Part shown: one piece after another, positions 34,555 to 55,097 of the stretch
Position numbering within the stretch: position 1 is the first letter of the stretch
How the letters are laid out: each line of letters begins with the position of its first letter
Assembly: GCA_038062955.1 (NCBI GenBank)
Contig: JBBTWE010000001.1
Location: forward strand, 320,038-384,037
Length of the DNA stretch: 64,000 bases
From: Patescibacteria group bacterium
Lineage (GTDB): Bacteria > Patescibacteriota > Minisyncoccia > Phycocordibacterales > BOKC01
Reading direction: 5' to 3'
The notes under the pieces: generated by a model
Seen by the model: the letters and a program-made list of their open reading frames with translations, nothing else
The model's database searches: none
What the model was told of the DNA's origin: nothing
Program-made: the position numbers and the translations under genes

Positions 34555-34555
34555 C

Positions 34556-38323: not shown

Positions 38324-38356
38324 GAATTATCAGAGTGACGATTACATGTGTGAAAA

Positions 38357-38887
38357 TTAATTCAGCGACCAAATTGCGTAGTTTAAGTACATTGCAAAGC
38401 TGACCCAAAGAATATATGGCACGAGAAGCCACGCTGCCAGTTTGCCGTGTCCCGCCGTAGTCCAAATACTGGACGAAGGAGGAGATATTTTTGCGAAAGC
38501 AATAATCGTGGCGAAAATGGCAAGCCAGAGGAATACAATCTCAATAAGCGCGCCGCCCGGGCTGTGCAGGCCGAAAAAGATAATTGACCAGAGTGTGTTT
38601 AAGACGAGCTGAATCCCAAACAAAACTAACGCAACTTTAATCCCTTTCTTTTTATCCTCCGAAGCCTTGGTGTAGGAGGACCAAATAAGAAAAAGTGAAA
38701 TGCCCATGAGAGCAAAGAGTGTTGTCCAAACCGGACCGAATATCCATGCTGGAGGATTGAGCACTGGTTTGACGATCCCCGCATACCATCCGTCAATGGA
38801 TGGCGTGGTAAAAAACGCGCCAATAATTCCCGCCACTTCAGATACCGCTATAGCGATAATGAGTTTAAAAAAGTTATTTATACGCAT
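38357..38887 (-). CDS. tspO: TspO/MBR tryptophan-rich sensory protein
   Basis: The motifs WYAGIVKPVLNPPAWIFGPVWTTLFALMG and LVLNTLWSIIFF are present. Five TM segments. Confidence 0.85.
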   Translation of the reverse strand: MRINNFFKLIIAIAVSEVAGIIGAFFTTPSIDGWYAGIVKPVLNPPAWIFGPVWTTLFALMGISLFLIWSSYTKASEDKKKGIKVALVLFGIQLVLNTLWSIIFFGLHSPGGALIEIVFLWLAIFATIIAFAKISPPSSSIWTTAGHGKLAAWLLVPYILWVSFAMYLNYAIWSLN

Positions 38888-39048
38888 AAGTGAATTTTAT
38901 CACTTTCTATGTGTTATGGTTATGGGCTTTTTCAACTATTTATCCCTTACAAAAAATCTACTGGATATAAAATAAAGGAGACACCGCTAAAAGAGCCGAT
39001 TGCTCCGAGGGTAGGAATTTCTCCGTATTACAGAAACAAAAAATGAAC

Positions 39049-39774
39049 TTAGAATCTCCTGTTGTAGAGATCGTCTTGGTCTTTCTCAAACACACCTCTA
39101 GGTCGATCCACCCAACCGAACGACTCAAAAATCCACGACACCGTATCTATTGACAGTTTCTTGTGTTCAAAAAGAATTTCCTCATTTGTAAACTCTTTCT
39201 CGAAAGGTACAACATTATCATGTGCCTTATAGTCCATAAATAAATCAGCACGCATAAAATCAAAAACCTTTAAGACTCTTCCTTTGGTATTTACCAACCC
39301 TATAGATATTTTTATTCCATCATCATAAACGCCAAGCTTTGCCATTCTGTGAGCAAATTCAAAAATTTCTGTAACAGTGTAAATGGCAGAGATGGTTCCA
39401 AACGCATCCCCAGATTTAAGTGCTTTTAAATCTGGTCTAGTTACCCAGGCGTCTTCAGCCCACCAATCCTCATCCATTGCAAATAAGTGGATAAACTGAC
39501 CACTTTGGTAAAATCGCCAAAATTCAATCTGTGTGTTCCAATCACACCCACCCTCGATATAGTCTTTTCCGATAACAACCTCACGACTTTGTGGTTTTTC
39601 CCAATGACTCAAGTGCGGATAATCCCAGCCTCTCAGTTTCACTCTGTAATTGGTTACCATATCAATTAACTGCTTCCTGTCTGGAATAAGAAGTTGATTG
39701 AATTTAAGAGGTGTGAATTGAACCTTCCAATAGCCTCTTGATTTAATTTTGTCTAGTAGTTCTTTTTCGGTCAT
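39049..39774 (-). CDS. Hypothetical protein (241 aa, Trp/Asp-rich). It is translationally coupled (ATGA overlap) to the upstream AlbA_2 gene.
   Basis: There is a 4-nt overlap with 39771..40346. No known domain was recognised. Confidence 0.55.
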   Translation of the reverse strand: MTEKELLDKIKSRGYWKVQFTPLKFNQLLIPDRKQLIDMVTNYRVKLRGWDYPHLSHWEKPQSREVVIGKDYIEGGCDWNTQIEFWRFYQSGQFIHLFAMDEDWWAEDAWVTRPDLKALKSGDAFGTISAIYTVTEIFEFAHRMAKLGVYDDGIKISIGLVNTKGRVLKVFDFMRADLFMDYKAHDNVVPFEKEFTNEEILFEHKKLSIDTVSWIFESFGWVDRPRGVFEKDQDDLYNRRF

Positions 39775-40346
39775 ATGTTTAAATCCTCAATCTGACTAAG
39801 AAAGCTGTTCGCGGCACTCTCACTAATAGCTCGATTCCAACCACGCTTCTTGAGGTTCTCATTCATTTTGTCAGTTGCCAATTCAACCAACTCTCTCATA
39901 TGGGCGGAATCTGGAACCTCAACAGTTTCAGGTCTTCGGTTTCTTGTTCGGATATAAATTGCACCTTTCCTGAAACCATCACCTTCTTTTTTGCAGATGA
40001 CGGGCATCTCTGAAAATTCTCTAACAGTGAAAACAACGTAGTTCTTACTCTCATGTTCAACTATATCTACGCTAAAATTTGCATACGGGTCAGCATACCT
40101 TGAGACGTAATCCTTTATTACATCCTCTTTGTAAGAGGTTAGGTGTTCTGCTTTTACTCCAACCAGCTTCCCAGAATTATCTATACCAACGATAAGATTT
40201 CCACCTTCTCGTGTATTGGTAGCCGCTAGAATAAATTTGGTCAATTTGTTTTTTAGGCTACTATCCCAAGACTCCGATTCCTTGAATTCTAGAGATATAC
40301 TTTCTTTTCCTGACTCAATTATTCTTTTAAAATTATCGATGGTCAT
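39771..40346 (-). CDS. AlbA_2 (Schlafen-like / divergent AAA-4 N-terminal) domain protein
   Basis: ESISLEFKESE...ILAATNTREGGNLIVGIDNSGKLVGV matches the AlbA_2 core (LEFK ... AfANtxGGxlliGV.D.G.ivGv). Confidence 0.7.
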   Translation of the reverse strand: MTIDNFKRIIESGKESISLEFKESESWDSSLKNKLTKFILAATNTREGGNLIVGIDNSGKLVGVKAEHLTSYKEDVIKDYVSRYADPYANFSVDIVEHESKNYVVFTVREFSEMPVICKKEGDGFRKGAIYIRTRNRRPETVEVPDSAHMRELVELATDKMNENLKKRGWNRAISESAANSFLSQIEDLNI

Positions 40347-40499
40347 GAGTGTAGTACAAAGAGAAATTATGGATTATTCAAAATCAAATAACAACACTCC
40401 AGATAGAGAACCTTTTTCTTTTAGTATAAATGAATTGTGTATGATTTTATTTGTCAATTGGGTATTGGTATGTAAAGCATTGTAAAGTATAATGTATTT

Positions 40500-40676
40500 A
40501 TGCCTGAAAAGGAATTTTACAGAGCGGAGGATCTGGCGAGATTATTGGAGGTAAATATTATGACGATTTACCGATACATTAAGGCTCGGCGCTTGAAAGC
40601 GTACAAGATTGGACGCGAATTTCGTATTGAAAAAAAAGAATTCGAATCATTTTTAAATAAAGTGAGCACAAAATAG
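40500..40676 (+). CDS. Small excisionase/MerR-type HTH DNA-binding protein (58 aa). It is a candidate controller of the R-M operon.
   Basis: LARLLEVNIMTIYRYIKARRLKAYKIGREFRIEKKEF fits the HTH_17 / excisionase pattern. The gene ends 2 nt before the R-M start. A TATAAT lies at 40486. Confidence 0.6.
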   Translation: MPEKEFYRAEDLARLLEVNIMTIYRYIKARRLKAYKIGREFRIEKKEFESFLNKVSTK

Positions 40677-40678
40677 TT

Positions 40679-43666
40679 ATGAGCAAAATATTATTAGAAA
40701 AACTTGTTGCGAAATATGACTCGGATAGAGAGCATTATTTGTCTTCTCATTACAATGAGACGCAATTAAGAGCCGATTTTCTTGACCCTCTGTTTGACCT
40801 ACTGGGATGGGATATAAGAAACACCGAAGGAAAACCAACAAACGAAAGAGAAGTTTTGTTGGAAGAAGGTTTAAAAGAAGATGTTGCATCTAATACAAAG
40901 AAACCTGATTACACCTTCAGGTTGTTCTCCGAAAGAAAATTTTATCTTGAAGCAAAGAAACCGAACGTCAAAATTGAAACAGACACAGAACCAGCAAAGC
41001 AAATTAGACGCTACGGGTTTACTGGAAAATTAAAGATTTCAGTCTTATCTAATTTTGAATATTTAGCTATTTACGATTGTTCTGAAAAGGTAGAAGAATC
41101 AGACAGTGTCTCAAAATCAAGAATAAAGATTTACCACTACAAGGAGTACGCAGAAGCTTTTGAGGAAATTCAAAAGGAACTTGGGCGTGAAAGTGTATAC
41201 AGTGGGGCTTTTGATAAAACTTGGGAGCATATTGAGGAAAGACTAAAACTGTTTAGCGTTGACAGTCTGTTTCTTAATCAAATTAACCAATGGAGACTGG
41301 TCTTGGGAAAAGAAATCTTTAGTCTTAGAAATGACTTAAATGAGGCACAGCTAAACGATATCGTCCAAAGATATATCAACAGCATCATCTTTTTAAGGGT
41401 TCTAGAGGACAGAAACCTTGAAGATTATAAAACCCTATTGGGTATTGCCAGTGCTGATAATTTCAAAGATTTGGTCGAAAAATTCAATCAAGCCGACAAG
41501 AAATACAACTCTGGTCTTTTCAATCATGGTTTAACGGAAGAAATTATAACCAATAATAGCTCGGCTTTTTGGTTGATTATCAAACAACTTTATTATCCTG
41601 AAAGCACTTATTCGTTCGCTGTCTTTGCCTCCGATATTTTAGGAAATATATATGAAATATTTTTGGCTCAATACCTCGCTATTAAAGACGGTGAGGTTAC
41701 TTTAGAGAAAAAGCCTGACCATATTGGTAGAGATGTTGTAACAACGCCAACTTACATTATTCAAGACATTCTTCGGCAGACTGTTCGCGAGTACTGTAAT
41801 CAGAAAACAGACAAAGAAATTCTAGCTTCTAAATTTGCGGATATTGCTTGTGGTTCAGGAGCCTTTCTGCTTGAAACTTATCAATTGGTAAGTGACATTT
41901 TGATTGACTACTATATCGCGAATTCCCCAGAGGTTCTTATTCAAACAGGAGTAAGTACCTACAAACTTCCATTTGAGCTAAAAAGAAAAGTTCTCGAATC
42001 TTGTTTATTTGGAATCGATAAAGATTTTAATGCTGTTGAAGCATGTAAATTCGGACTCCTACTAAAACTTCTTGAAGATGAAAACAATTCAAGTATCCCT
42101 ACCCCAGCATTACCAGAAATATCAAACGTAATACATTTTGGTAACAGCTTGGTTGAAAGTTCTGAAACAACAGAAGCAAGTCGTTCAACAATTAATCCAT
42201 TTGATTTTAAAGACATTAAGTTCGATGTGGTAGTTGGAAACCCGCCATACATGACTACCGAAGACATGAAGGAACTCACTCCTTTAGAACTTCCTTTATA
42301 CAAAGAGAAATTCTCAACTGCATACAAACAGTTTGATAAGTATTTCTTATTCGTTGAAATGGCTTATCGTCTTCTCGATGAGAATGGATATTTAGGATAT
42401 ATCGTACCGAGTAAGTTTACAAAGGTGGGTTCAGCGAAGATGCTTCGTGAATTACTAAAGAGCAATAAAGCTGTAAGTAAACTTATTTCCTTTGGCGCGA
42501 ACCAGATTTTTGAAGATAAAACTACGTATACTTGTTTGCTAATTGTTCAGAAGAAAGAACACCCTTCTTTTGAGTTTTTGGAAGTTAGAGATTTATTAGA
42601 TTGGAAAACTCGAAATATTAAGCAAGAAGAGTTTGAATCAGTTGCATTTGATGAATTGGAGGAAGATTGGGTTCTTGTTGCAGGAAAACTCAAAGAGGTT
42701 TATGAGAGAATAAACTCACAGAGCATTACTCTTTCTGAACTAATTGGTGATGAAAATATTTACAATGGCATTCAAACCAGTGCCAATGACATATATATCA
42801 ATACGCCCAAGAAAGAAGATAAGCGATACTTCTATTTTCAGAAGGATGGCAAAGACTGGACAATAGAGAAAAAGCTTACAAAGCCATACTTTAAGACATC
42901 GGGTGGTGTAGATAATTTAAATACTTATCGCTCATTGAAAGCAAATTCCTTTGTTATTTACCCATACGAAAAAACTCCAACGGGTGAAATTCAATTTATC
43001 GAAATTAGCCGATTGATGACCGAGTTTCCAAAAGCCTATGAATATCTATCTGCATATAAAGATAAGTTAAGCGCATCTACAAGAGATATTAAGCCCGAAC
43101 CTACTACCCCAGATGAGTGGTACAGATACGGTAGACATCAATCTTTAGACAAGTGTGACGTACCAGCAAAAATAATTGTAGGCGTTCTCTCTCAAGGTAA
43201 TAAATATGCAATTGATTACTCTGGCGCTTTGATTTCTTCTGGTGGTACCGCAGGTTACTGCATGATAACTCTCCCGTCTGATTGTGAATATTCGATTTAT
43301 TACATTCAAGCACTTCTAAATTCAAAATATCTTGAATGGTACTCCGCCCTATATGGTGAAGTATTCAGAGGTGGATACGTAGCTAGAGGAACAAAGGTTC
43401 TTAAAAAACTCCCGATACGAGTGATTGATTTTACAAACCCTAGTGAGAAAGAACTTCACGACGAGATATCTCATATAGAAGAGGGTTTAATTAAGACTCA
43501 AGAAAAAATTGACCAAAATTTAAGCAATGAGCGAGAGTTAGTACCATTGCAAAGAGAGTTCGATTCTATGAAAAAGGAATTAGAAATTTCCTTAAAGAAA
43601 CTATATGGACTCGGAGAAAGCGACCAAAAGATTCCATTGATATCTCAAATATATGAAACTGATTAA
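40679..43666 (+). CDS. Type IIG restriction-modification enzyme of the Eco57I/MmeI type. It has an N-terminal PD-ExK nuclease (D..EAK), a central gamma-class N6-adenine MTase and a C-terminal TRD.
   Basis: The nuclease motif is PDYTFRLFSERKFYLEAKK. The MTase motifs are DIACGSGAFL (motif I) and VVGNPPYM (motif IV). Length is 995 aa (Eco57I is 997 aa). Confidence 0.85.
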   Translation: MSKILLEKLVAKYDSDREHYLSSHYNETQLRADFLDPLFDLLGWDIRNTEGKPTNEREVLLEEGLKEDVASNTKKPDYTFRLFSERKFYLEAKKPNVKIETDTEPAKQIRRYGFTGKLKISVLSNFEYLAIYDCSEKVEESDSVSKSRIKIYHYKEYAEAFEEIQKELGRESVYSGAFDKTWEHIEERLKLFSVDSLFLNQINQWRLVLGKEIFSLRNDLNEAQLNDIVQRYINSIIFLRVLEDRNLEDYKTLLGIASADNFKDLVEKFNQADKKYNSGLFNHGLTEEIITNNSSAFWLIIKQLYYPESTYSFAVFASDILGNIYEIFLAQYLAIKDGEVTLEKKPDHIGRDVVTTPTYIIQDILRQTVREYCNQKTDKEILASKFADIACGSGAFLLETYQLVSDILIDYYIANSPEVLIQTGVSTYKLPFELKRKVLESCLFGIDKDFNAVEACKFGLLLKLLEDENNSSIPTPALPEISNVIHFGNSLVESSETTEASRSTINPFDFKDIKFDVVVGNPPYMTTEDMKELTPLELPLYKEKFSTAYKQFDKYFLFVEMAYRLLDENGYLGYIVPSKFTKVGSAKMLRELLKSNKAVSKLISFGANQIFEDKTTYTCLLIVQKKEHPSFEFLEVRDLLDWKTRNIKQEEFESVAFDELEEDWVLVAGKLKEVYERINSQSITLSELIGDENIYNGIQTSANDIYINTPKKEDKRYFYFQKDGKDWTIEKKLTKPYFKTSGGVDNLNTYRSLKANSFVIYPYEKTPTGEIQFIEISRLMTEFPKAYEYLSAYKDKLSASTRDIKPEPTTPDEWYRYGRHQSLDKCDVPAKIIVGVLSQGNKYAIDYSGALISSGGTAGYCMITLPSDCEYSIYYIQALLNSKYLEWYSALYGEVFRGGYVARGTKVLKKLPIRVIDFTNPSEKELHDEISHIEEGLIKTQEKIDQNLSNERELVPLQREFDSMKKELEISLKKLYGLGESDQKIPLISQIYETD

Positions 43667-45257
43667 AAGTGCCACAAAAGAAAAATTGCGGGGCGGTTTC
43701 TATACCCCAAACAGTATTGTCTCATTTATTTTGAAATGGGGTTTTAATGGTAATCCTAAAATGGATATATTGGAGCCAAGTTGTGGAGATGGCGTATTTC
43801 TTGAGGAAATCAGAAATGGTGCATACAAATACAACTCAATAACAGGTGTAGAACTTGATAAAAAGGAAGCTGAAAAATCTCGGAACCTTAATGTAAAAAA
43901 AACCACAATAGTTAATTCTGACTTCCATAAGTATTGCTTACAAACAGATGATAAGTTTGATTTTATTGTCGGAAACCCACCTTACATTCGGTTCCAATAC
44001 TTCGATAAAAAACAGCAACAATTTGCATCTAAAATTTTTGATAAGGCTGGCTTAAAATATTCAAAGCTTACAAACGCTTGGGTTTCTTTCGTCGTTGGCT
44101 CAAGTCTGCTTCTAAAAGAGAATGGGAAACTGGGCTTTGTTTTACCTGCTGAAATATTACAGGTTTCGTACGCACAACCATTGAGAGAATTTCTATCCCA
44201 CTTCTACAACAAAATAACAATCGTTTCTTTTAAGAAGCTAGTCTTTCCTGATATACAACAAGAAGTGGTTTTGCTTTTATGCGAAAAGAATAAAACAGAC
44301 TCTCATTTGATTGAACATATTGAGCTGACAGATGCAGACGAACTATCTAAAACTGATATTTATAAATTTAAAACACCGCAAAAGAAAATAGATTTTAAAA
44401 CCAACAAATGGACATTCTATTTCTTAAACCAAAAAGAGATAGATTTTCTACTAAAATTAAAAGAGAAGAAGACCATCCCAACACTGGGTGAGCATACCAA
44501 AGTAGAGGTTGGTATTACTACTGGAGCGAATCCATTTTTCACTGTGCCTCTTTCCACCGTGAAGTCTTATGAAATGGAAGACTTTGCTTATCCAATGGTT
44601 GGGAGAAGCGTGCAGGTTCCCAGCGTGATTTTCACTAAAAAGGACTGGAGTGAGAATAATAAAAAAGATTCTAGGTCTCATCTGTTGGTATTTCCAAAAA
44701 TGGCTGATTTAAAAAATAGAACTGGTGCAAAGAAATATATTAAAAGTGGTGAATCCGAAAAACTACATGAAGGATATAAGAATAAAATACGAGACGAGTG
44801 GCAGATTGTCCCTTCATTAAGAATCTCCGATGCTCTCTTCATCCGTAGAAATAATCTTTACCCAAAGCTAATCATCAATAGCGCAAAGGCATATACCACT
44901 GACACTATGCATAGAGTAACCCTCAACAAGGGTGTGGACACCGAAGCTTTAGTAGCAAGTTATTACAACTCGCTTTCTTTAGCATTTGCAGAGATATCTG
45001 GTCGTAGTCATGGTGGCGGTGTTTTGGAACTCATGCCAAATGAAGCGGAAGAAATTCTTGTTCCATATCATAAAAATAACACTAAATTACTACCCATTAT
45101 TGATGAAATGATGCGTGCTAAAAAAAACATCTCGGAGATACTAAAAGTAACAAATCAAAAGATTTTAAAAGATAATTACGGTTTTTCTACGGCAGATATC
45201 GAATTGGTTGATGGTATTCGAAAGAAGTTATCTGAAAGAAGGTTAAATAGAAGTTAA
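43653..45257 (+). CDS. Companion N6-adenine DNA methyltransferase (M.Eco57I-like) with a C-terminal TRD
   Basis: The motifs EPSCGDGVFL and IVGNPPYI are present. It overlaps the R-M gene by 14 nt. Length is 534 aa. Confidence 0.85.
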   Translation: MKLIKSATKEKLRGGFYTPNSIVSFILKWGFNGNPKMDILEPSCGDGVFLEEIRNGAYKYNSITGVELDKKEAEKSRNLNVKKTTIVNSDFHKYCLQTDDKFDFIVGNPPYIRFQYFDKKQQQFASKIFDKAGLKYSKLTNAWVSFVVGSSLLLKENGKLGFVLPAEILQVSYAQPLREFLSHFYNKITIVSFKKLVFPDIQQEVVLLLCEKNKTDSHLIEHIELTDADELSKTDIYKFKTPQKKIDFKTNKWTFYFLNQKEIDFLLKLKEKKTIPTLGEHTKVEVGITTGANPFFTVPLSTVKSYEMEDFAYPMVGRSVQVPSVIFTKKDWSENNKKDSRSHLLVFPKMADLKNRTGAKKYIKSGESEKLHEGYKNKIRDEWQIVPSLRISDALFIRRNNLYPKLIINSAKAYTTDTMHRVTLNKGVDTEALVASYYNSLSLAFAEISGRSHGGGVLELMPNEAEEILVPYHKNNTKLLPIIDEMMRAKKNISEILKVTNQKILKDNYGFSTADIELVDGIRKKLSERRLNRS

Positions 45258-45259
45258 TT

Positions 45260-45376
45260 ATGAAAGCAATAAACGTCTCACGTGTATCAACAGAAGAACA
45301 AAAGGAAGCAGGAAATTCTCTACCTGCTCAAGTTGAGCGTATAAGAAAGTCTGTGAACGAAAAAGTTTTGATCTGA
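45260..45376 (+). pseudogene. Serine recombinase (resolvase/invertase) N-terminal fragment. It is 38 codons long and includes the catalytic Ser.
   Basis: MKAINVSRVSTEEQKEAGNSLPAQVERI matches the resolvase N-terminus (MxxxxYxRVSTxEQ..SLxxQ). A stop codon follows codon 38. Confidence 0.6.
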
Positions 45377-45610
45377 CATAAATTTATTTCTTCTTTTTCT
45401 TTACCCCCCCTACCAAAAACGCCTTTGGTGTGGGAGTTTATATTACTCGTCTCCTCCAAAAAAGCGTTTAAGTCTGATTCTTTGATCCGCCAAACACCGA
45501 CATAAAATTGCTTTAAGGGTTGATACCATTTTACCCCTTCTTAAATTCATTGTCGAAATCGCCGTCTTTTGTCATAAAAGAAAAATGTCGGCTTTCATTG
45601 ATATTTGCCT

Positions 45611-45655
45611 CCGCGGGTAGCCTGCCTGCCGGCAGGGAGTTTCTCTCTCTACGAG
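45611..45655. repeat. A 45-bp element (ctccgcgggtagcctgcctgccggcagggagtttctctct), the left member of an inverted pair with 49219..49262.
   Basis: The reverse complement matches 49219..49262 except for a 4-nt indel. The core is the CTGCCGGCAG palindrome. Confidence 0.65.
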
Positions 45656-45980
45656 AGCAGTATAGGTTTCCCATTTTTTCGGATTTAACATCCTCAAAAA
45701 TATGGGAGAACCTTTTCGAATCCTACCTCGCAAGCAAAATTATTTGCTTGCTCGCGAGTAGGAATTTCTTTCATTACATGAACAGTATACCTTTTGGCTA
45801 AAATTTTCATCCTCGACAAACTTGGATTCAATTTTAGGCTCAAAAGCTTTTCGAATCCTAACGAAGGTGCTATTCAAAGCACCTTCTCCCGCAGAAGCCA
45901 CAAATGACAAAATCCACCGAAAAGGTGGATTTGTGTCAGTGGCTCCGCGGGTAGGATTCGAACCTACGACCAATCGCTTA

Positions 45981-46535
45981 CATTTGTTCCAAAGTTGCCT
46001 TTGGCATGGACTATATCATCATCCTTCATCGGCTGTTTGCAGATGGATGGGATGTGAGGCGCTTCGACTGAATTTTTCAGGCTACTCTCTTTCGAGATAG
46101 TCTCTGAACCTTCCTGCTGATTAGCAGGCTTGGCTGCTGATTGCCCACGTGGGGTTTCCAGCAATTCACCTCATTTTTCATCCTAAATTCCTTTAGGAAG
46201 CTGCGTGATGCCGTCATGTATTTCCATGTGACAATTTGCACAAACGAGTACGCACTTCTTAATTTCCTCTTCGATTTTGGCCCAGGAACGTGTTATGCCT
46301 CCAGAAGCAAGATCGAATTTCTTTGTAGATGGATCGATATGGTGGAAACTAAGAGATCGTTGGCATTTTTTGTAACCACATATAAAACATTTACTGCCTT
46401 TCGTTGCTCTAGCCATTTCACGAAGTTTTCTTCTTCTTCGTTTTACAGCTTCTCGCATGTACTCGGCACGGTCGGCATAGGTTCTTTTTTCTTTCCTGGT
46501 ATACATTAATAAAGTATACCACAGAACCTTCTGAC
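45981..46535 (-). mobile_element. Group I intron (within the anticodon loop of the tRNA) carrying an HNH homing-endonuclease ORF.
   Basis: P7 strands GACUA / UAGUC (cagAGACTAtc ... atATAGTCc), GNRA-capped hairpins (tctcGAAAgaga, ccaaagGCAActttgg), a terminal omega-G and the HNH ORF are all present. Confidence 0.7.
46183..46506 (-). CDS. HNH homing endonuclease (intron-encoded)
   Basis: CFICGYKKC...SFHHIDP...N...CANCHMEIH is the C-x2-C/HH/N/C-x2-C-H HNH signature. Confidence 0.8.
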   Translation of the reverse strand: MYTRKEKRTYADRAEYMREAVKRRRRKLREMARATKGSKCFICGYKKCQRSLSFHHIDPSTKKFDLASGGITRSWAKIEEEIKKCVLVCANCHMEIHDGITQLPKGI

Positions 46536-46645
46536 ACAGGCGACTGCGCTACCACTGCGCCACCGCGGAATATTTGTGGAGAACGAGTTTATAATATCAA
46601 AAAAGTCTTTAAAAGCAATGTGACCATGAAATAAAATTTATCGAA

Positions 46646-47707
46646 CTATCTGCAAGAGGTTCTTCCTCCATCCAAATCATATTCCATCTTCAACCAATCA
46701 AAGTTTAACTCATTTGCTTTGTTGCAAAATTCCTTTGATTGCAATTCATATTCTACTCCAAAAACTGCTTTGTTTTGTGCAATGAATGGTAAAAGAGTTT
46801 CGCATTCATCATATTCAAAACATTGTTCATTCAAAGCAAAATCAAAATAACCAACCAATTCAGGAATTTGCTCTAGATCATTTTTCAAACCAACAGTTAA
46901 TCCTCTTTTATGAGCTTCTTCTGCAAGCCATTTATTATAAGCCAATTGGTGTTGATAGGTTAAAGCAAATCCATTATTGTTCAAATAACCATCCACATTA
47001 TCTGGCTCAACACCATCGCACCCCTTTTTTACCGCTAAATCCAATCTGTTTTTCATAATCGGTGCAATCAAGTCAATTTTGGAAATATCAAGCCATTTCT
47101 CATCCTCCCATCCTTCAAGAGTTCTTCCCTTAACCTCATTTGGAAAATCATCCTCGTCGATTCTCCAATCTTCATAACTTCCAGCACTAAAATAGCAAAT
47201 AACCTTGATACCTTTATTTTGCAATGCATTTATTGCCTCTTTTGAATTATCAAATAAGTCCACATCGTACATGTCAACAACATAGTTTGGATTTAGTGTT
47301 CCCATCAATTGCCATTGCCACGATGTATTTGGATTTGGTTTCCACCAATTAGTATTTTCTAGACTTTCATTGCTTTTAGTAGTTTGTACTTCTTTGAGCT
47401 CTGGTTTGTTTACTTTTGTAGCCTCTATGTTTGAAATATTTTGTTCTGTTGCTTCGTTTATAGTTGTTTTAGATAGTTCTGTTTTTGGGGCCAAAGCAAT
47501 GGTTTCAGATTCTTCTGAATTTGTTGCAATATCTTCTGTTAGCTCAAAGTCTGTAGCTATGTTTGATAGTTGTACTGTGGTAGTTTCCGGAGTCCCCTCT
47601 ATTAATTTTTTCTTATCGTCTGTTTGTTTTATGTTAGCGAAAACGATTGTGCTAACCGCAGCGACGGCCAACACCAATAAAATAATTTTCAGAACTTTTC
47701 TTTTCAT
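46646..47707 (-). CDS. Secreted glycoside hydrolase family 114 (endo-alpha-1,4-polygalactosaminidase / PelA-like) protein
   Basis: A signal peptide is present. The motifs WQWQL, CYFSAGSYEDWR, GWEDEKWLDI and GCDGVEPDNVDGY are GH114 signatures. Confidence 0.75.
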   Translation of the reverse strand: MKRKVLKIILLVLAVAAVSTIVFANIKQTDDKKKLIEGTPETTTVQLSNIATDFELTEDIATNSEESETIALAPKTELSKTTINEATEQNISNIEATKVNKPELKEVQTTKSNESLENTNWWKPNPNTSWQWQLMGTLNPNYVVDMYDVDLFDNSKEAINALQNKGIKVICYFSAGSYEDWRIDEDDFPNEVKGRTLEGWEDEKWLDISKIDLIAPIMKNRLDLAVKKGCDGVEPDNVDGYLNNNGFALTYQHQLAYNKWLAEEAHKRGLTVGLKNDLEQIPELVGYFDFALNEQCFEYDECETLLPFIAQNKAVFGVEYELQSKEFCNKANELNFDWLKMEYDLDGGRTSCR

Positions 47708-47771
47708 TCTTTAATTATAGTACATCATTAGGATTTTTTAAATTAAACACATTAGTGGTAAAATATAGCTA

Positions 47772-49127
47772 ATGCGTCAAAACATCTTGTCGAAAAATAG
47801 GAAGGGGTTCTCACAAATTATTTTATTAGGCATCGTGGCTATACTTGTTTTAGTTGGGGCCGGCGGATTTTTGTTATTGCCTGAAAAAGAAAAGTCTATC
47901 CCCAATATTCCAATACAACCCTCCAATCCCCAAACACAGTCAGAATTAAAACTAACAGAAAACATCCAGCCAGCATCGCAAAATGTAGAAATCGTAAAAA
48001 ATGTTGATCGGGTGCCTAATACTGACAGTAGTGCGGTACAGATAGGCAAGAGATTTTCCAATGGAGCATGTGATGGGAGCGGGAAAAAGCTTATGACCAC
48101 TGCCCCAATGAATCCCGAGGATGTACAGATGATTTTGCCATACGGCACGATGGTGGGCGCTCATGTGATACCAACATCGCACCAGTATCTAGAACCATGG
48201 GATAGAGCTCTAGGTCGGGATAAATATGAAGTGCGAGCGGCAATGGACGCAACCCTCTATTCGATTAGCAGAAGAGCCCAAAACGTCGAATCGGGTGAAG
48301 CGCGGCCAGAAGAATTTCAACTTTGGTTTGCCATCACATGTACGCACTTTTATTATTATGATTTGATGACGAGTCTCTCTCCAGAGCTCCAGAAGATTTT
48401 TGATGAAGAAAAGCGTCAAGATGATTATGCTTATGTACATATTCCAGTGAAAGCTGGACAAGTGGTGGGAAAGATAGGAGCGCAGACATTGGATTATGGT
48501 GTTTGGGATACGGAGCTACCGCCCACTACAGGCATCCTGGTGCCCGAGCACTATCAGTGGGACAGCTTTCGTGTTTATCTTGCTGACCCGCTTAACTACT
48601 ATACCGATGAGTTGAAAAAGATCATGCTGTCAAAATATGTCCGAACGGCCGAACCAATTTCGGGCAAAGTCGATTATGATATCGACGGAAAACTGATCGG
48701 TGGATGGTTTCTGGAAGGCACAGGGAATCTGACAGGAGGAAATTTCCAAAAGTATTGGGCTGGGCATCTGGCCATAGCGCCCGAATATCTCGATCCCAGT
48801 GTTTATTTGATTTCGGTTGGAGACTTCGCGGGTGAAGAGAAACAATTCTCGATACCCAGAAACGCTCCCGATCCAAAAAGTGTCGGGGTAGAGACGGGAC
48901 TAGTCAAATATGATCTGTTACCATGGCAATATTTGAAATCGGACGGAACGATTTGGGATTGGAAGAAATATGCAAAAGGATTGAAAATTGTGAATGGGCA
49001 TCAGAACTTTGGGTGCGTCGCTATCCAGATGATAGAGTCTCGCAAACTAAAATTTGAGGGCTTTAAAGGTAAAAGCTGTGCCAGTGTTAGCGGATTTACT
49101 AGCGCGGCTAAGATTTATGAACGCTAA
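47772..49127 (+). CDS. Hypothetical secreted/membrane-anchored protein (451 aa)
   Basis: An N-terminal TM/signal segment is present. No recognised domain. Confidence 0.5.
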   Translation: MRQNILSKNRKGFSQIILLGIVAILVLVGAGGFLLLPEKEKSIPNIPIQPSNPQTQSELKLTENIQPASQNVEIVKNVDRVPNTDSSAVQIGKRFSNGACDGSGKKLMTTAPMNPEDVQMILPYGTMVGAHVIPTSHQYLEPWDRALGRDKYEVRAAMDATLYSISRRAQNVESGEARPEEFQLWFAITCTHFYYYDLMTSLSPELQKIFDEEKRQDDYAYVHIPVKAGQVVGKIGAQTLDYGVWDTELPPTTGILVPEHYQWDSFRVYLADPLNYYTDELKKIMLSKYVRTAEPISGKVDYDIDGKLIGGWFLEGTGNLTGGNFQKYWAGHLAIAPEYLDPSVYLISVGDFAGEEKQFSIPRNAPDPKSVGVETGLVKYDLLPWQYLKSDGTIWDWKKYAKGLKIVNGHQNFGCVAIQMIESRKLKFEGFKGKSCASVSGFTSAAKIYER

Positions 49128-49218
49128 GGTCACTTTCTTTTTTCTCAAGATGTCAATACTACTTTGAGAAACTTCTTTTGAAAAAATGGGAAATCTATAC
49201 TGTTCTCGTAGAGAGAAA

Positions 49219-49262
49219 CTCCCTGCCTGCCGGCAGGCAGGCTACCCGCGGAGTCTACAAAC
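49219..49262. repeat. A 45-bp element, the right member of the inverted pair with 45611..45655.
   Basis: agagaaactccctgcctgccggcaggcaggctacccgcggag. Confidence 0.65.
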
Positions 49263-50037
49263 CGCGCCTCAACTTATTCCGATAGATGATAGAGACGAGC
49301 GCGAAGCTCAAGATAAGCAGAAGAAACCACGAACCGATTTTGCTCCACGAGACAAAATGCCAATTCTCGACTTGGCTCGGATAGAGCCAGACTCGGGTGA
49401 AAGTGTCAATATTTTCTGCTACCCATACAAAAAAGGAGGTCAAAAATACCGTCACTAAAAATGGCATACTTCGTTCTTTCCTATACACCTCAAAATGCAC
49501 CTTTGTTTTAAAAAATATAATAAATACGTATAGGAACAAAAAATATCTAATATCGTAAAAGAAATGATGTGTAAAGAAATTTACATATATAAGACCTGCG
49601 AGAATCCAGATGTGATAATAGGCCGGAAATCGCTCGTATGAAAGCTTAAGAAAAATAAAGGCTCGAGAGATGTAACTCCCAATCGCCGAATATAAAAAGC
49701 CTGTAAAAAGCGGTATTGTACCGATTGCAAATATTGCGCTTCCTACGCTTGGATAAGACCATGAACCAATAGCAGGGTTAGTCTTGAACAACTCCATGCC
49801 AGTTGCGAGTAGATGAAAAATAATAATAACGAGAAATTCTCTAGGACGTTCAAATCGGAATATGAGCGCACATAATTGAAAACCCACTGCGGCGAGAAAA
49901 ATAAAATCGTACCTGCTTATAATTGGAATGGTAAAAAACTCGGTGAGTAGAAATATTAAAAGCAGAAACAGGCCAAAGAAACTTGCCCGCAGACTAGCTA
50001 TAAAGAAATACCAAAGCTCAACAAATACAATATTCAT
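49255..50037 (-). CDS. Hypothetical polytopic membrane protein (260 aa)
   Basis: It has 6-8 predicted TM helices and is Phe/Tyr-rich. Confidence 0.5.
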   Translation of the reverse strand: MNIVFVELWYFFIASLRASFFGLFLLLIFLLTEFFTIPIISRYDFIFLAAVGFQLCALIFRFERPREFLVIIIFHLLATGMELFKTNPAIGSWSYPSVGSAIFAIGTIPLFTGFLYSAIGSYISRAFIFLKLSYERFPAYYHIWILAGLIYVNFFTHHFFYDIRYFLFLYVFIIFFKTKVHFEVYRKERSMPFLVTVFLTSFFVWVAENIDTFTRVWLYPSQVENWHFVSWSKIGSWFLLLILSFALVSIIYRNKLRRGL

Positions 50038-50105
50038 TATGTGAAAACTGTAACATTTTTTTCGTTTTTAGTTTATTGTATAGAGCAAAGATTTGGTAAA
50101 ATAAT

Positions 50106-50360
50106 TTGATGATAAAAAAAGAAATCACAACCGGTGTATTGCATAACATGCCCACAGATTTACAAAAATCTCTTGCTTCCGACAGAGCGGCATTATCTAC
50201 ATGGGAGGATATTACCCCGCTTGCACGCAATGAGTGGATCTGCTGGGTTACATCCGGTAAAAAAGCAGAGACGAGGGATATTCGTATCGAGAAGGCACTC
50301 TCCAAACTTAAGAGCGGAATGCGCCGACCTTGTTGTTGGGCCGGTTGCCCTCATCGTTAA
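50106..50360 (+). CDS. YdeI/OmpD-associated family protein (moderately GC-rich)
   Basis: The ..W..A...ETRD.RI.K....L pattern is present. Length is 84 aa. Confidence 0.5.
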   Translation: MMIKKEITTGVLHNMPTDLQKSLASDRAALSTWEDITPLARNEWICWVTSGKKAETRDIRIEKALSKLKSGMRRPCCWAGCPHR

Positions 50361-50416
50361 AGTCTAAAAATCCAAACTGAAATTTTCTTTGACATAACCA
50401 TTACAATACCGTATCG

Positions 50417-50767
50417 TTGAAACTAGTTAGGTCTTTCGCAACACACAAACAAAGGAGAATGGAGATGCCTACTCCCCTGAAGCTTTTGGCGGGCAATAAG
50501 TTTTCCGGTCGCCATACTACTGTGATTCGATCCGCTGTCTCTCTGATTTCACTCATCAAAAAGTATGATGAAGTAACAAAAATCACACTGGGTACCATCC
50601 TCCCCTACCATGCGCCACAACCACAATTACGCTTCAAACCAACCCAAAGTGGTTGGGAGTTGAAAGTAATCGGATGTAATGCCAGTCAAATCTTCTTCAT
50701 TCACACCAAGAATCCAGAACTGGTGAAAAAAAGAATCGAAGAAGATTGGGAGAAACTCAATAGGTAG
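50417..50767 (+). CDS. Hypothetical protein (islet). The likely start is MEMPTPLK at 50462, which follows aaaggag.
   Basis: A strong SD, aaaggagaatggagATG, is present. Confidence 0.45.
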   Translation: MKLVRSFATHKQRRMEMPTPLKLLAGNKFSGRHTTVIRSAVSLISLIKKYDEVTKITLGTILPYHAPQPQLRFKPTQSGWELKVIGCNASQIFFIHTKNPELVKKRIEEDWEKLNR

Positions 50768-50873
50768 GAGTGTATCGAATGTGTGAGAACAAGCGCGTGC
50801 CCGACATCCGGTGCCGCGTTTTTTTATTATTTAAGAGACACTTCCACAGCGTGATATAATTTCTTTATATTTT

Positions 50874-51761
50874 ATGCAAATTGGATACATCGGTTTGGGA
50901 AAAATGGGATACAACATGGTTCTTCGACTTCATGAAAAAGGCCACGAGGTTTTGGCGTACAATCGCAGTGAGGAAGCAAGAAAAGAGATCGAAAAAGAAA
51001 TTGGAATACAAACTGTCGCTTCCCTATCAGAATTTAAAACTCTACCTGCTCCGAGAACAGTCTGGCTTATGGTTTCAAACAATGCCGTCGACCAAGTCCT
51101 AAAAGATCTTCTGCTGAATTTGGACAAAGGAGACACTGTAATTGATGGAGGAAATTCTTTTTATAAAGATTCCATTCGACGCGCAAAAGAACTTCAAAGT
51201 AAAGGTGTTCATTTTTTGGATGTTGGTGTAAGTGGAGGTCCCCACGGCGCAAGAAATGGGGCATGTATGATGATCGGCGGAGACAAAAAAGAGTTTGCGA
51301 GATTAAAAAAATTATTTGTCGATCTTACACTTCCCGACAGTTTTAAATTTTTTGGAAAAGCTGGGGCCGGGCACTTTGTAAAAATGGTTCATAACGGAAT
51401 CGAATATGGAATGATGCAAGCGATCGCCGAAGGATTTGAAGTAATGAAAAAATCGGAGTTTAGTTTGAATCTCAAGGAAGTGGCAGACTTGTACAATAAC
51501 GGAAGCGTTATTGAATCCCGCCTTGTGGGGTGGCTTGAATCTGGCTTTAAAAAATATGGAGAAAATTTGGAAGATGTTTCGGGGACAGTTGCACACACCG
51601 GCGAAGGAAAATGGACTGTAGAAGCGGCCAAAGAACTTGGAATAGAAACTCCAATCATTGAAGGCTCATATAATTTCCGCGTCAATTCAAGCAAAAAACC
51701 GTCTTTCGCTGGAAAAATCCTCTCAACACTCCGCAACCAATTCGGCGGCCATTCTGTGTAA
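50874..51761 (+). CDS. gnd: 6-phosphogluconate dehydrogenase (decarboxylating), short Gnd/YqeC-like form
   Basis: The motifs IGYIGLGKMGYNM (Rossmann) and GGNSFYKDS...VGVSGG are present. Confidence 0.85.
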   Translation: MQIGYIGLGKMGYNMVLRLHEKGHEVLAYNRSEEARKEIEKEIGIQTVASLSEFKTLPAPRTVWLMVSNNAVDQVLKDLLLNLDKGDTVIDGGNSFYKDSIRRAKELQSKGVHFLDVGVSGGPHGARNGACMMIGGDKKEFARLKKLFVDLTLPDSFKFFGKAGAGHFVKMVHNGIEYGMMQAIAEGFEVMKKSEFSLNLKEVADLYNNGSVIESRLVGWLESGFKKYGENLEDVSGTVAHTGEGKWTVEAAKELGIETPIIEGSYNFRVNSSKKPSFAGKILSTLRNQFGGHSV

Positions 51762-51764
51762 AAT
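51603..51764 (+). repeat. Direct repeat DR1, the native 3' end of gnd.
   Basis: A 162-bp segment about 93% identical to 53452..53613. Confidence 0.8.
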
Positions 51765-51859
51765 GTTTAATTATTCTAAAGCGTAATTTTTTATATAATC
51801 AGGATTGTGTTGAAATAAAAAAACCCGCGCCAACTAGAGTCGGAGCGAGTTTCATGGAT

Positions 51860-52189
51860 TCAATCACCACGACATTCTGTACAGATAAAATCTCCATCCT
51901 CGTCGGCCTGAATTCTGTGATTATAGCCTACGGTCGTGACTTCATCGTAACTGTTGTGCGTACCGTATAAGTTAAAGAACGGAGAGAGAGTACCATGAAC
52001 GCCACACAAACGACATGCGGCATGAACTTCGTCTCTCACAAAGAAGTCGCCGATAAAATCGAGAAGACACTCTCTCTTTTTATCTCGGATTATCTTGCAT
52101 TTTTCTATTGCGTCAGCTTTGCAAGAAACAATGTAAATCTCTCTTGAGATGTCAGGCTCTCCATCGGTGTCAGTCATATTTTTCACCAT
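51860..52189 (-). CDS. Hypothetical Cys-rich protein (109 aa)
   Basis: ORF track only. It lies inside the gnd-associated insertion. Confidence 0.4.
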   Translation of the reverse strand: MVKNMTDTDGEPDISREIYIVSCKADAIEKCKIIRDKKRECLLDFIGDFFVRDEVHAACRLCGVHGTLSPFFNLYGTHNSYDEVTTVGYNHRIQADEDGDFICTECRGD

Positions 52190-52274
52190 TCTCTTCTGAT
52201 TGTTGAAAAAAGAGAGCGCGCTACATTTATTGATTAAACGTAACGCGCTCGAGCACGCTAAGCTTGCTGCTTAG

Positions 52275-52619
52275 CTAGAGGGGCTTCACGAACCCGGAAT
52301 CCCTGAAGACATCCGGGAAGCGTTCGCTGAGCCGCTTGACTTCGCCGAGCCGGTGCCCGCCCTGCTCGAACATCGGGATAGTGGTCTGCCCGATGACAGG
52401 AACGTGCACCTTCTCTCCGTCACGACTGCCAGTGATGTGCGGGCGCGGATCGCGGGAGGTGTGAACGCTGTCCCCAAACAGATGTTCGAGGCCTGGCGGG
52501 ATGTAGAAATCGATTTTCATCGAATGTCCTTTAGTTGTCTCAGTTGTTGAAGAACAATGCATTAGACCATCTAATGCCCTTTTTAAGGTTACTTCAAAAA
52601 CAAAATTTCTGTCAAACAA
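52275..52619 (-). CDS. Hypothetical GC-rich protein. The likely start is MKIDFY at 52517 (aagga SD).
   Basis: The ORF is GC-rich and is followed by inverted-repeat hairpins at 52215..52275. Confidence 0.4.
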   Translation of the reverse strand: MFDRNFVFEVTLKRALDGLMHCSSTTETTKGHSMKIDFYIPPGLEHLFGDSVHTSRDPRPHITGSRDGEKVHVPVIGQTTIPMFEQGGHRLGEVKRLSERFPDVFRDSGFVKPL

Positions 52620-52722
52620 GATTACATCTTTTTGTAATAACTTTGTGTTAATAATGGAAAATGCCTTGTTTTAAAAGATATAATATGGTAAATTATGTGT
52701 AATTTAAAATTACATTTTTTAT

Positions 52723-53451
52723 ATGAAAACAGAAAAAATATTACAAACTCTTGGTCTTACAGAAAAAGAAAGTGGGGTCTATCTTTCACTTTTGGAATCA
52801 GGACCAGCTTTAATTTCTCAAATATGTCGTGACACCGGTTTTCATCGACCAACTGTGTATCAGATATCATCATCGCTTCAATCTAAAGGCCTCATTTCAA
52901 TGACAACTCTTGGCAAACAAAAACGTTTTGTTGCCGAAACGCCAGAAAAATTACAAACATTGTTTGAGATGATAAAAACAGATTTTCAGAACTTTCTGCC
53001 TGGGATCCAAGATATTTACAATAGCCAAGATAAGCGACCATCGGTTAAATTTTTTGAGGGTAAAAAAGGGGTAACATCGGTTATAGAAGATTTGCTTGTC
53101 AGTTTGAAACGCGGAGAATCTTACTGTAGAGTCGGTTCAAAAAAAGCTCAACTAGAAGTGCAAAAATATCTTCCTAAAGATTACGTGGACAAACGTGAAT
53201 CAAAACAAATCGGTAGATATGTTATTACAGATCAATTATCTGAACATCAGAAAAAACGTCCTTCACTTAATCGCTCTCATAAATTCATATCGAACAATCT
53301 TGGTTTTTCAGATTGCAATATAATAGAACTAATATACAAAAATAAAGTGGTCTTTGCTGATCTGGGTAGTGTGAACGCTGTGATAATAGAAAATGCCGAT
53401 GTGGCAGACTTTCAAAAGAAGATTTTCATGACTCTATTTAATTTGTTATAA
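52723..53451 (+). CDS. TrmB-family transcriptional regulator
   Basis: The N-terminal winged HTH is LGLTEKESGVYLSLLESGPALISQICRDTGFHRPTVYQ. Confidence 0.7.
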   Translation: MKTEKILQTLGLTEKESGVYLSLLESGPALISQICRDTGFHRPTVYQISSSLQSKGLISMTTLGKQKRFVAETPEKLQTLFEMIKTDFQNFLPGIQDIYNSQDKRPSVKFFEGKKGVTSVIEDLLVSLKRGESYCRVGSKKAQLEVQKYLPKDYVDKRESKQIGRYVITDQLSEHQKKRPSLNRSHKFISNNLGFSDCNIIELIYKNKVVFADLGSVNAVIIENADVADFQKKIFMTLFNLL

Positions 53452-53613
53452 GAAGGAAAATGGACTGTAGAAGCGGCCAAAGAACTTGGAATCGAAACGC
53501 TTATCATCGAAGGCTCATATAATTTTCGAGTCAATTCAAGCAAAAAACCGTCATTCGCTGGAAAAATCCTCTCAACACTCCGCAATCAATTCGGCGGCCA
53601 TTCTGTGTAAAAT
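53452..53613 (+). repeat. Direct repeat DR2, a duplicated gnd 3' end. It still encodes WTVEAAKELGIETLIIEGSYNFRVNSSKKPSFAGKILSTLRNQFGGHSV.
   Basis: Compare with 51603..51764. Confidence 0.8.
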
Positions 53614-54029
53614 TGACTTGTACCACAGAATATTCTAGTCTGTTAGCGAATTGCTCTTTAGAAAAAACCGAGACAAAAGGAGAATGTATGCCTCAAGTCA
53701 TCTGCCGTCACAGCATTCCACTACGAGACAGCTTGGGAATTGCCGTAACAATGATTGTCGCAGACTTCGTCAGCACAGAAAAACATCCTGTGCCCCGAGA
53801 AGAAGTCGACTGGTTGCCCCAATCAAATGAATCGGGATCAATTTGTCCTGATTTTGCTCTCGAGCTTCGTCTGGTTGGTCACTCCGATCGCAGAATGAGA
53901 CTGGATCATGCTGGGGCGTTAGAGCTCAAGCGACTTATCGCCGGCATCCCAGATTTTCCAAGCAATGTGGACAAGGACAAACCTTTCCTTTGGATCCAAT
54001 TCATCGATCCAGATGGCCCATACGTCTAG
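53613..54029 (+). CDS. Hypothetical GC-rich islet protein. The likely start is MPQVICRH at 53688 (aaaaggag SD).
   Basis: An SD is present. The terminator is ccccac..gtgggg plus a T-run at 54038..54090. Confidence 0.45.
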   Translation: MTCTTEYSSLLANCSLEKTETKGECMPQVICRHSIPLRDSLGIAVTMIVADFVSTEKHPVPREEVDWLPQSNESGSICPDFALELRLVGHSDRRMRLDHAGALELKRLIAGIPDFPSNVDKDKPFLWIQFIDPDGPYV

Positions 54030-54153
54030 CTTCATCACCCCACGATTGCACAACCCATATGGTTGGAATTCTGTGGGGTTTGTTTTTTATATAGATCCAA
54101 AATAACTCAAATTTTAATCATCAATATTAGACGCAAATTTTACTTGACTTTTT

Positions 54154-54645
54154 GTGTATAAAATTCCAAACTGGCTGGCAGAGTCAGTTCTTCGGACAGT
54201 GATGTCCAAAACCCTAGTAAGAGGAGATAGGATGGATGCTCAAGAAATGACACGTCAGATAGTAAAAGGTCAGGAAAACCTAGAACGGATGAAGCGTGAG
54301 ATCTTTATGGTAGTTGAGGTGTTGCTCCTCATCATCAAAGGTCAAAAAGGGGCAAAGAGAACGCGAAACACCCAGAAAGTTATCCGCTCTAGATCAGATC
54401 AGTGCCGTTGGGAGATCTTTTCACTTCGAGATGGATCAGTATCTTTAAGATGCTGGGTAAAAAAAGGCAACATCTCGATTAACTCGTTTAGTATGGACAC
54501 CAATGGCAATTGCGAGATCGGACTTGGCCTAATCGAAACGATACACGACAATCTGCCAATGCTCGTTGCCCTAATGATTAGGCAATTTCCGACTTTTGAG
54601 AGAGAGCTTGAGCCAATCATCAAGGCCTCTACGAAAGAGTTCTAG
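54154..54645 (+). CDS. Hypothetical GC-rich islet protein. The likely start is MDAQEM at 54233 (agaggag SD).
   Basis: An SD is present. The terminator is ccgccccgaagtc..gacttcttgggcgg plus T6 at 54650..54695. Confidence 0.45.
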   Translation: MYKIPNWLAESVLRTVMSKTLVRGDRMDAQEMTRQIVKGQENLERMKREIFMVVEVLLLIIKGQKGAKRTRNTQKVIRSRSDQCRWEIFSLRDGSVSLRCWVKKGNISINSFSMDTNGNCEIGLGLIETIHDNLPMLVALMIRQFPTFERELEPIIKASTKEF

Positions 54646-54767
54646 AGGCATCACCCGCCCCGAAGTCTCGTGACTTCTTGGGCGGTTTTTTATACAAACT
54701 TCATTCAATCAAATCTTTTTTAGTTTTTCCTATGTTAAAATTCTGAACTCGATCACAACAAAAGTTT

Positions 54768-55097
54768 ATGACCACCAAACAATCAACAATAGATTACATA
54801 TTGGATCAATTAGCTGGAGCGGGCGATGTATCAGCCCGAAAAATGTTCGGCGAATATGCCCTTTATTGTGATTCTAAAGTAGTGGCTTTGGTATGTGACG
54901 AAACATTGTATGTAAAAATCACAGAGCAAGGAAAAAATTTTGTTGGTTCATCTTTCAAAGAGGGTTACGCTTACAAAGGAGCAAAAGTATCAATGATGAT
55001 TGACGATGACAAAATAGAAGACCACGAGTGGCTCTCGGAACTTATAAATATCACAGCGGATAATCTCCCACTTCCAAAGCCCAAAAAGAAAAAGTGA
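54768..55097 (+). CDS. TfoX/Sxy N-terminal domain protein
   Basis: RKMFGEYALYCDSKVVALVCDETLYVK matches the TfoX_N pattern (MFGG.glY..G..Falv.dd.LYLK). Confidence 0.6.
   Translation: MTTKQSTIDYILDQLAGAGDVSARKMFGEYALYCDSKVVALVCDETLYVKITEQGKNFVGSSFKEGYAYKGAKVSMMIDDDKIEDHEWLSELINITADNLPLPKPKKKK

Follow-up and report, generated by a model that had tools for sequence, protein, structure and literature searches.

In a 64-kb stretch of a groundwater Patescibacteria genome (the window, whose coordinates are used throughout), we find that the gene for tRNA-Asn(GUU), located on the minus strand, is split by a group I intron of the IA type that lies between positions 35 and 36 of the tRNA. The intron is very probably self-splicing, and L1, the loop of its P1 helix, carries an HNH gene that is very probably a homing-endonuclease cassette. 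The locus is made up of the following parts:

46536..46569, minus strand: 5' exon of tRNA-Asn(GUU), 34 nt, positions 1-35, ending ...CCUGU (U35); placed by ARAGORN on the joined and the unspliced sequence
45981..46535, minus strand: group I intron, 555 nt, between tRNA positions 35/36, ending ...AAAUG, with the terminal G (omega-G) at 45981; placed by RF00028, ARAGORN i(35,555) and covariation
46183..46506, minus strand: HNH endonuclease open reading frame (ORF), 107 aa, in L1; from the ORF list and a weak Pfam HNH match
45940..45980, minus strand: 3' exon of tRNA-Asn(GUU), 41 nt, positions 36-76, with encoded CCA and discriminator G; placed by ARAGORN
45910..45932, minus strand: terminator-like hairpin with a T-rich tail, 8 nt past the CCA end of tRNA-Asn; from a consensus scan, function putative

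The identity of the exons and of the tRNA that they form is observed directly. When the two exons (46569..46536 and 45980..45940) are joined, ARAGORN recognizes a 75-nt tRNA-Asn(GUU) with a regular cloverleaf and the anticodon loop CUGUUAA, and in its intron mode the program reports the unspliced locus as tRNA-Asn i(35,555), the sole tRNA gene within the window. A preliminary description of this stretch had assembled the same 75-nt tRNA, with this loop and the discriminator G, from two minus-strand halves 555 nt apart, and ARAGORN bears it out in both modes. Two of the doubts that the description itself raised, whether the joined exons score as a tRNA and whether the halves belong to one RNA, are answered by the ARAGORN call and by the finding that the halves flank one ribozyme in an arrangement that recurs in dozens of related genomes. 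The spliced tRNA shows six differences and one single-base gap relative to the uninterrupted tRNA-Asn of a related genome (L015; L numbers denote the loci compared, among them 80 kept from a scan for relatives of the HNH protein), amounting to ~91% identity over 74 aligned columns. This uninterrupted counterpart scores 64 bits with the Rfam tRNA model.

The position of the intron is fixed by its two ends. The preliminary description had correctly recognized that the 5' exon ends in U (U35) and that an omega-G precedes the 3' exon (G 45981), and it had tentatively placed the insertion after position 36. Position 35/36, also given by ARAGORN, is the single boundary that yields both a U at -1 and a terminal G, so the intron does not lie after position 36. 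The expected junction of the ligated exons is ...CCUGU/UAAGCG..., i.e. ...GUCGCCUGU/UAAGCGAU..., the slash marking the point of ligation. In its default mode, ARAGORN reports zero tRNA genes in the 64-kb window, and across Rfam and tRNA scans of positions 1..64000 the split tRNA-Asn is the sole structured-RNA gene, with no further tRNA, rRNA or Rfam family. The missing tRNA under standard tools is thus an annotation artefact, because the intron hides tRNA-Asn. The same point about hidden tRNAs has been raised with regard to completeness estimates of Patescibacteria genomes by Nakagawa et al. (mSystems 2026, PMC13011429; preprint 10.1101/2025.07.03.662931), who describe Patescibacteria tRNA-Asn(GUU) group I introns at 35/36.

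The group I core is equally plain. The Rfam group I model RF00028, a check proposed in the preliminary description, matches 46271..45988 on the minus strand over its full length (1-253) with 78.2 bits (E 3.5e-18), well clear of the model's gathering score (50), and this is the sole Rfam match in the window. We then examined covariation in an alignment of 48 distinct homologous introns that begins at the guide sequence and extends as far as the 3' splice site. The structure counted comprises P2, P3 (the pseudoknot) and P4-P9, plus two hairpins between P7 and P3'. RNAalifold is unable to represent the P3/P7 pseudoknot, and P3 was added by hand before pairs were counted; the program also joined the guide GCA to a UGU located at the 3' splice site, and this pairing was dropped from the structure. 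The helices are placed as follows, all on the minus strand:

46182..46197: P2 hairpin CCUAA-AGGAAU-UUAGG; covariation
46173..46167 with 46061..46055: P3, enclosing P4-P6, the P7 5' strand, P7.1 and P7.2; covariation and Rfam alignment
46163..46158/46140..46135: P4; covariation and Rfam alignment
46154..46152/46146..46144: P5; covariation and Rfam alignment
46134..46108: P6/P6a; covariation and Rfam alignment
46102..46098 and 46013..46009: P7, strands GACUA/UAGUC; covariation and Rfam alignment
46097..46086: P7.1, with a GAAA loop; covariation
46082..46066: P7.2; covariation
46054..46051 with 46023..46020: P8; covariation and Rfam alignment
46004..45989: P9, with a GCAA loop; covariation and Rfam alignment

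Across the 48 introns, standard pairs occupy 94.4% of cells, compared with 74.6% in shuffles, and changes on both sides are seen in 36 of 54 pairs; none of 500 shuffles attains such values. When the 3' partners are shifted by 1-3 columns, pairing falls to 35-47%. Compensatory changes are present in all five P2 pairs, and both P7.1 and P7.2 covary; in the Rfam alignment these two hairpins appear as a 34-nt insertion between P7 and P3'. The P7 strands are those that the preliminary description had picked out. It had also assigned hairpins capped by GAAA and GCAA to the P8 and P9 positions: the GCAA hairpin is indeed P9, and the GAAA hairpin is P7.1 rather than P8. In the Michel-Westhof 1990 classification, subgroup IA is marked by two additional helices, P7.1 and P7.2, that lie between P7 and P3'. 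As both are present and covary, the window intron is of the IA type and not of the IC3 type of the classical tRNA-Leu/fMet/Ile/Arg introns; the compact core without P7.1/P7.2 that characterizes IC3 is not what we find.

The P1 helix, which the preliminary description had left open, was placed by comparison with ORF-less relatives and by the TQLP pattern described below. Its internal guide sequence is ACGCAG (46201..46206, minus strand), ~330 nt into the intron and within the last codons of the ORF, where it also encodes Thr-Gln. The GCAG of the guide pairs with the exon end CUGU, with a U35-G wobble at the 5' splice site, and AC lengthens P1 through pairs with GU, the two bases that open the intron. 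Other candidates, lying close to the intron's 5' end, as well as GCAGG (P6) and GUGGG (P5), were rejected by eye in favor of ACGCAG. In ORF-less relatives the motif GCAGCUUC occurs 6-13 nt past the 5' splice site; in ORF-containing relatives, including the window, ACGCAGCUUCC is found ~325-345 nt into the intron. The guide thus lies far into the intron in ORF-containing members, and the HNH gene therefore sits in the P1 loop. This 107-aa ORF (46506..46183 on the minus strand), whose presence inside the intron the preliminary description had reported, ends in ACG CAG CUU CC, which is at once Thr-Gln-Leu-Pro and the guide sequence followed by the 5' strand of P2, and its stop codon UAG falls in the P2 3' strand. 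All complete tails of intron-embedded ORFs read ...TQL[P/S], apart from one TQPP (one further tail is masked by N), and free-standing HNH copies have other C-terminal residues, among them IINIP, ITEIP, ITKIP and ITLLP. The confinement of TQL[P/S] tails to embedded copies fits a double constraint, in which the same bases serve as coding sequence and as guide and P2.

The HNH protein belongs to a large family. We found 295 homologue clusters with identities of 60-85%; they carry the names Patescibacteria, Paceibacterota, Nomurabacteria or Kaiserbacteria, and several members that are 64-79% identical to the window protein have a precomputed match to PF01844. Among 30 aligned members, C40, C43, H55, H56, C89, N91, C92, H93 and H97 are invariant, giving the pattern CxxC...HH...N...CxxC..H; these comprise the Cys pairs expected to bind zinc and the His and Asn of the predicted catalytic site.

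These features suggest how the element may work. The precursor would be transcribed as one RNA, in which exon CUGU and the first two intron bases would pair with the guide ACGCAG ~330 nt downstream; the resulting P1 would have its U-G wobble at the splice site, and the P3-P9 core would fold with P7.1 and P7.2. An external guanosine would then cleave after U35, and the terminal G (45981) would direct exon ligation to yield mature tRNA-Asn(GUU). That this copy splices is expected by analogy with a relative whose core is 75% identical and which splices in vitro. The HNH protein most likely cuts the intron-less tRNA-Asn gene near the insertion site, with repair copying the intron in; both its activity and this target are predicted from the location of the gene within the intron and from the exclusive association of the family with tRNA-Asn loci. 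The last HNH codons would be constrained to double as the guide sequence and the P2 5' strand.

Several points weigh against a tRNA-Asn split by a self-splicing, mobile intron. A search for a P10 pairing gave no convincing candidate, and the P1 strands are nearly invariant, so that covariation cannot probe this helix. The window protein scores 16.6 bits with Pfam HNH (PF01844), below the curated cut-off of 21.4. Its matches in the PDB are weak, although all are HNH domains; the best is to a group II intron maturase (E 0.0045), and the profile search gave further weak matches to McrA and a nicking endonuclease. A second, uninterrupted tRNA-Asn could possibly exist outside the 64 kb inspected, and the expectation that this copy splices draws on homology. 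The sub-threshold Pfam score would suit a ribozyme that splices and an HNH protein that is no longer a homing nuclease, being inactive, decaying or employed in another role such as intron folding, within an intron that is immobile and inherited vertically. Nuclease activity is a prediction for the family as a whole, and the host gene is probably single-copy and essential, so few empty sites may remain to invade. We nevertheless regard a lost homing function as unlikely: the ORF is full length and keeps all residues that are invariant across 30 diverse members, including both CxxC pairs and HH/N/H, the family stays 60-85% identical in more than 200 species, and free-standing copies stand among embedded ones on a neighbor-joining tree (which has no support values).

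Two other explanations concern the tRNA rather than the nuclease. With 64 kb of the genome inspected and splicing of the window copy predicted from relatives, the locus might be a dead copy whose intron stays unspliced while a separate, uninterrupted tRNA-Asn elsewhere supplies the cell. We consider this very improbable: the tRNA cloverleaf, U-1, omega-G and every core helix are intact, a terminator-like hairpin follows the gene, and another sample contains a 98%-identical copy whose upstream gene differs. Even harder to sustain is the idea that the exons are those of some other tRNA, such as Thr(UGU) interrupted at 33/34 or His(GUG), for which one could cite the ARAGORN labels of 29 related loci as Thr and 4 as His. 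At the 3' junction of the window (AAAUG/UAAGCG), a Thr or His boundary would leave U, not G, as the last intron base, and the tRNA body is ~91% identical to an intron-less tRNA-Asn. In addition, sequencing of spliced products has shown that Thr(UGU) 33/34 calls are a two-base boundary mis-annotation (PMC13011429). The split tRNA-Asn with a self-splicing IA-type intron and an HNH homing cassette remains by far the best account of the locus.

The preliminary description had considered an Asn-tRNA intron with an HNH ORF unusual for such a genome. It is in fact characteristic of Patescibacteria and has been published (PMC13011429), and the type was listed still earlier as 'Asn.4Ug' in the tFind study (Williams 2020, preprint 10.1101/2020.01.27.920355), according to PMC13011429. 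Nakagawa et al. report 15 tRNA-Asn intron cases in 95 complete genomes, and four tRNA-Asn introns with genes for HNH endonucleases; nearly all Patescibacteria tRNA introns in their study are IA, and no IC introns were found in Patescibacteria tRNA genes. They also demonstrated self-splicing in vitro, sequencing the ligated exons and including an omega-G mutant as a control. Using the sequences of their Table S3, we find that the window core is 75.1% identical to the intron spliced in vitro (GCA_016700035.1), itself ORF-less, and 76.7% identical to an ORF-less intron from Paceibacteria (GCA_016699245.1). The window HNH protein shares 50/98, 61/99 and 56/100 identical residues (51-62%) with the published HNH proteins, which come from WWE3, UBA1384 and Paceibacteria. 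The window element has the host gene, 35/36 site, phylum and IA-type architecture of the published introns, with an HNH gene of the same family in the same place, whose 3' end likewise runs into GCAGC(U/C)U. Although its genome, a Hainich groundwater assembly, lies outside their 95 complete genomes, the element is no different in kind: it is a further member of a described family whose kind, site, subgroup, HNH gene and splicing are already published.

Like the classical bacterial tRNA introns, which interrupt tRNA-Leu(UAA) at 34/35, tRNA-fMet at 33/34 and tRNA-Arg at 36/37 (PMC13011429) as well as tRNA-Ile, as in Azoarcus pre-tRNA-Ile (PMC3984707), the window intron is a group I intron within the anticodon loop, bearing U at -1 and a terminal G, and some of the classical introns also carry homing endonuclease genes. 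The classical introns differ in that they are mostly IC-type without P7.1/P7.2 and occupy other positions of the loop, and their nuclease genes are of the PD-(D/E)XK or LAGLIDADG type (PMC13011429) rather than HNH. What the window intron shares with the IA introns of the phage T4 type, whose homing endonuclease genes are embedded or neighboring (PMC3984707), is a core with P7.1/P7.2 and a peripheral helix from which a nuclease gene is looped out. Unlike those, however, the window intron is hosted by a cellular tRNA gene and not by a phage protein-coding gene, and its ORF, for a putative nuclease, lies in L1 and overlaps the guide.

The distribution of the family was read from a scan of one genome per species, which found relatives of the HNH protein in 203 species genomes. 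The named lineages are mostly Paceibacterota, Nomurabacteria, Kaiserbacteria, Zambryskibacteria and Minisyncoccia, and many rows carry the generic label 'uncultured Candidatus Saccharibacteria'. An identical HNH protein is present on Hainich groundwater metagenome contigs under the NCBI name 'Patescibacteria group bacterium'. For the 80 sampled loci, the ARAGORN labels are tRNA-Asn with a 35/36 intron in ~40 cases, Thr in 29, His in 4 and Glu, Phe and Ser in 1 each. Read at their junctions, the loci labelled 'Thr' and 'His' prove to have the same tRNA-Asn body; these labels are boundary shifts, which become possible where an intron ends in ...GUG. After correction, the HNH gene lies within a tRNA-Asn intron in ~65 of the 80 loci. 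A regular-expression search for the splice sites missed ~30 loci owing to its strict D-arm/T-arm patterns, and the counts rest on ARAGORN and manual reading. Complete genomes had given four cases; with 203 species in draft genomes, the HNH family proves to be spread much more widely. Two loci with a Patescibacteria-type tRNA-Asn intron or HNH gene carry labels of other phyla, one a Burkholderiales metagenome-assembled genome (MAG; L023) and the other a Nitrospira sp. MAG (L052); these could result from short contigs placed in the wrong bin or from genuine transfer. For Nitrospirota, PMC13011429 lists three 35/36 introns.

In ~14 of the 80 loci, the HNH gene stands outside any intron. The arrangements are as follows, with coordinates of the free-standing genes (plus strand) where placed; the L052 ORF is cut by the contig end:

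L014, L016, L052, L071: free-standing HNH divergent from a tRNA-Asn gene whose ORF-less intron measures 240-260 nt
L020, L021, L041, L045, L048: free-standing HNH on the same strand as, and directly upstream of, a tRNA-Asn gene whose ORF-less intron is shorter (216-317 nt)
L033: free-standing HNH convergent with a tRNA-Asn gene carrying an ORF-less intron
L015: free-standing HNH divergent from an intron-less tRNA-Asn gene
L035, L054, L062: free-standing HNH, with no tRNA gene found in the fetched stretch
L014 1501-1845, L015 1501-1824, L016 1501-1833, L020 1501-1842, L033 1501-1821, plus strand: free-standing HNH genes
L041 1501-1833, L045 1501-1815, L048 1501-1827, L052 1501-1786, L071 1034-1357, plus strand: free-standing HNH genes

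On a neighbor-joining tree of the HNH proteins, built from ~94 residues and without support values, the free-standing copies fall in at least six separate places. Their interspersal with embedded copies suggests continuing movement. Free-standing nuclease relatives beside ORF-less introns at the same target gene are also what is described in 'collaborative homing' or endonuclease-invasion models (PMC3984707). We tentatively raise the idea, which we hold to be somewhat less probable than its opposite, that the HNH gene is an autonomous cassette with its own promoter that has repeatedly moved between free-standing sites beside tRNA-Asn and intron L1. If so, the family would preserve, in cellular bacteria, the series of stages through which a mobile intron arises from an ORF-less intron and a free-standing nuclease with a common target site, including a stage beside an intron-less tRNA-Asn gene. 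With its free-standing relatives and a promoter-like motif described below, the family could serve as a natural system for the study of mobile-intron assembly. Nakagawa et al. concluded that most such introns lack nuclease genes and are poorly mobile, and PMC13011429 makes no mention of free-standing HNH copies; their occurrence beside tRNA-Asn genes is possibly a new observation. Some of the ORF-less introns next to free-standing HNH genes fall below the Rfam gathering score (L020 1891-2106, L021 722-937, L033 1240-1471 on the minus strand and L048 1922-2238). The L020 intron has a divergent P7 region and the L048 intron an insertion of ~90 nt in P6, and these sub-threshold introns may be divergent or decaying ribozymes.

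Around the start of the HNH ORF we observe a conserved motif and two potential pairings:

46521..46513, minus strand: conserved TGGTATACT, extended -10-like, upstream of the ORF start codon (46506..46504)
46504..46497, minus strand: inverted-repeat arm GTATACCA, an imperfect repeat of TGGTATACT; the repeat region 46497..46521 contains the start codon
46529..46523 / 46485..46479, minus strand: outer stem AGGUUCU/AGAACCU, read from the sequence, enclosing the start-codon region

The motif lies 6-9 nt ahead of the HNH start codon. Of 42 intron-embedded copies, 39 have it as TGGTATA[C/A]T; upstream sequence was recovered for 11 free-standing copies, and 10 of these have TGGTATA[C/T]T. The 3' arm of the inverted repeat varies and the 5' arm shows no compensating changes; it is therefore the sequence that is conserved, and not the pairing. 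The motif resembles the extended -10 element TGnTATAAT, and we hypothesize that TGGTATACT is a promoter that would give a leaderless or near-leaderless HNH mRNA. Conservation is the evidence for this promoter reading; a scan for consensus -35/-10 promoters flagged nothing on the minus strand, TGGTATACT included. PMC13011429 does not mention the TGGTATA motif, and the conserved promoter-like TGGTATA[C/A]T upstream of the HNH start is possibly a new observation as well. In the outer stem, the 5' strand consists of the first bases of the intron and the 3' strand corresponds to the codons R-T of the conserved RTYADRA motif. Homologues show apparent compensatory variants, e.g. UGUUCG/CGAACA, judged by eye without a formal count. 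Such a stem might serve to clamp the long L1 loop, or to mask the start region within the precursor RNA.

The copy of the locus in the other sample, SRR22388335, comprises the tRNA promoter region, the 5' exon and the intron at 98% identity (L003 636-1175 against window 46622..46083). The gene upstream is Cupin_2 in L003 and a GH114 gene in the window, so that the same tRNA locus has a different flank. On the other side of the window locus, a 995-aa Eco57I/N6-methylase-type fusion protein (40679..43666, plus strand) overlaps by 14 nt a 534-aa M.Eco57I-like methyltransferase (43653..45257, plus strand). The two Eco57I-type genes are probably a type IIG/IIS restriction-modification pair, and the pair stops ~680 nt from the 3' end of the tRNA-Asn gene.

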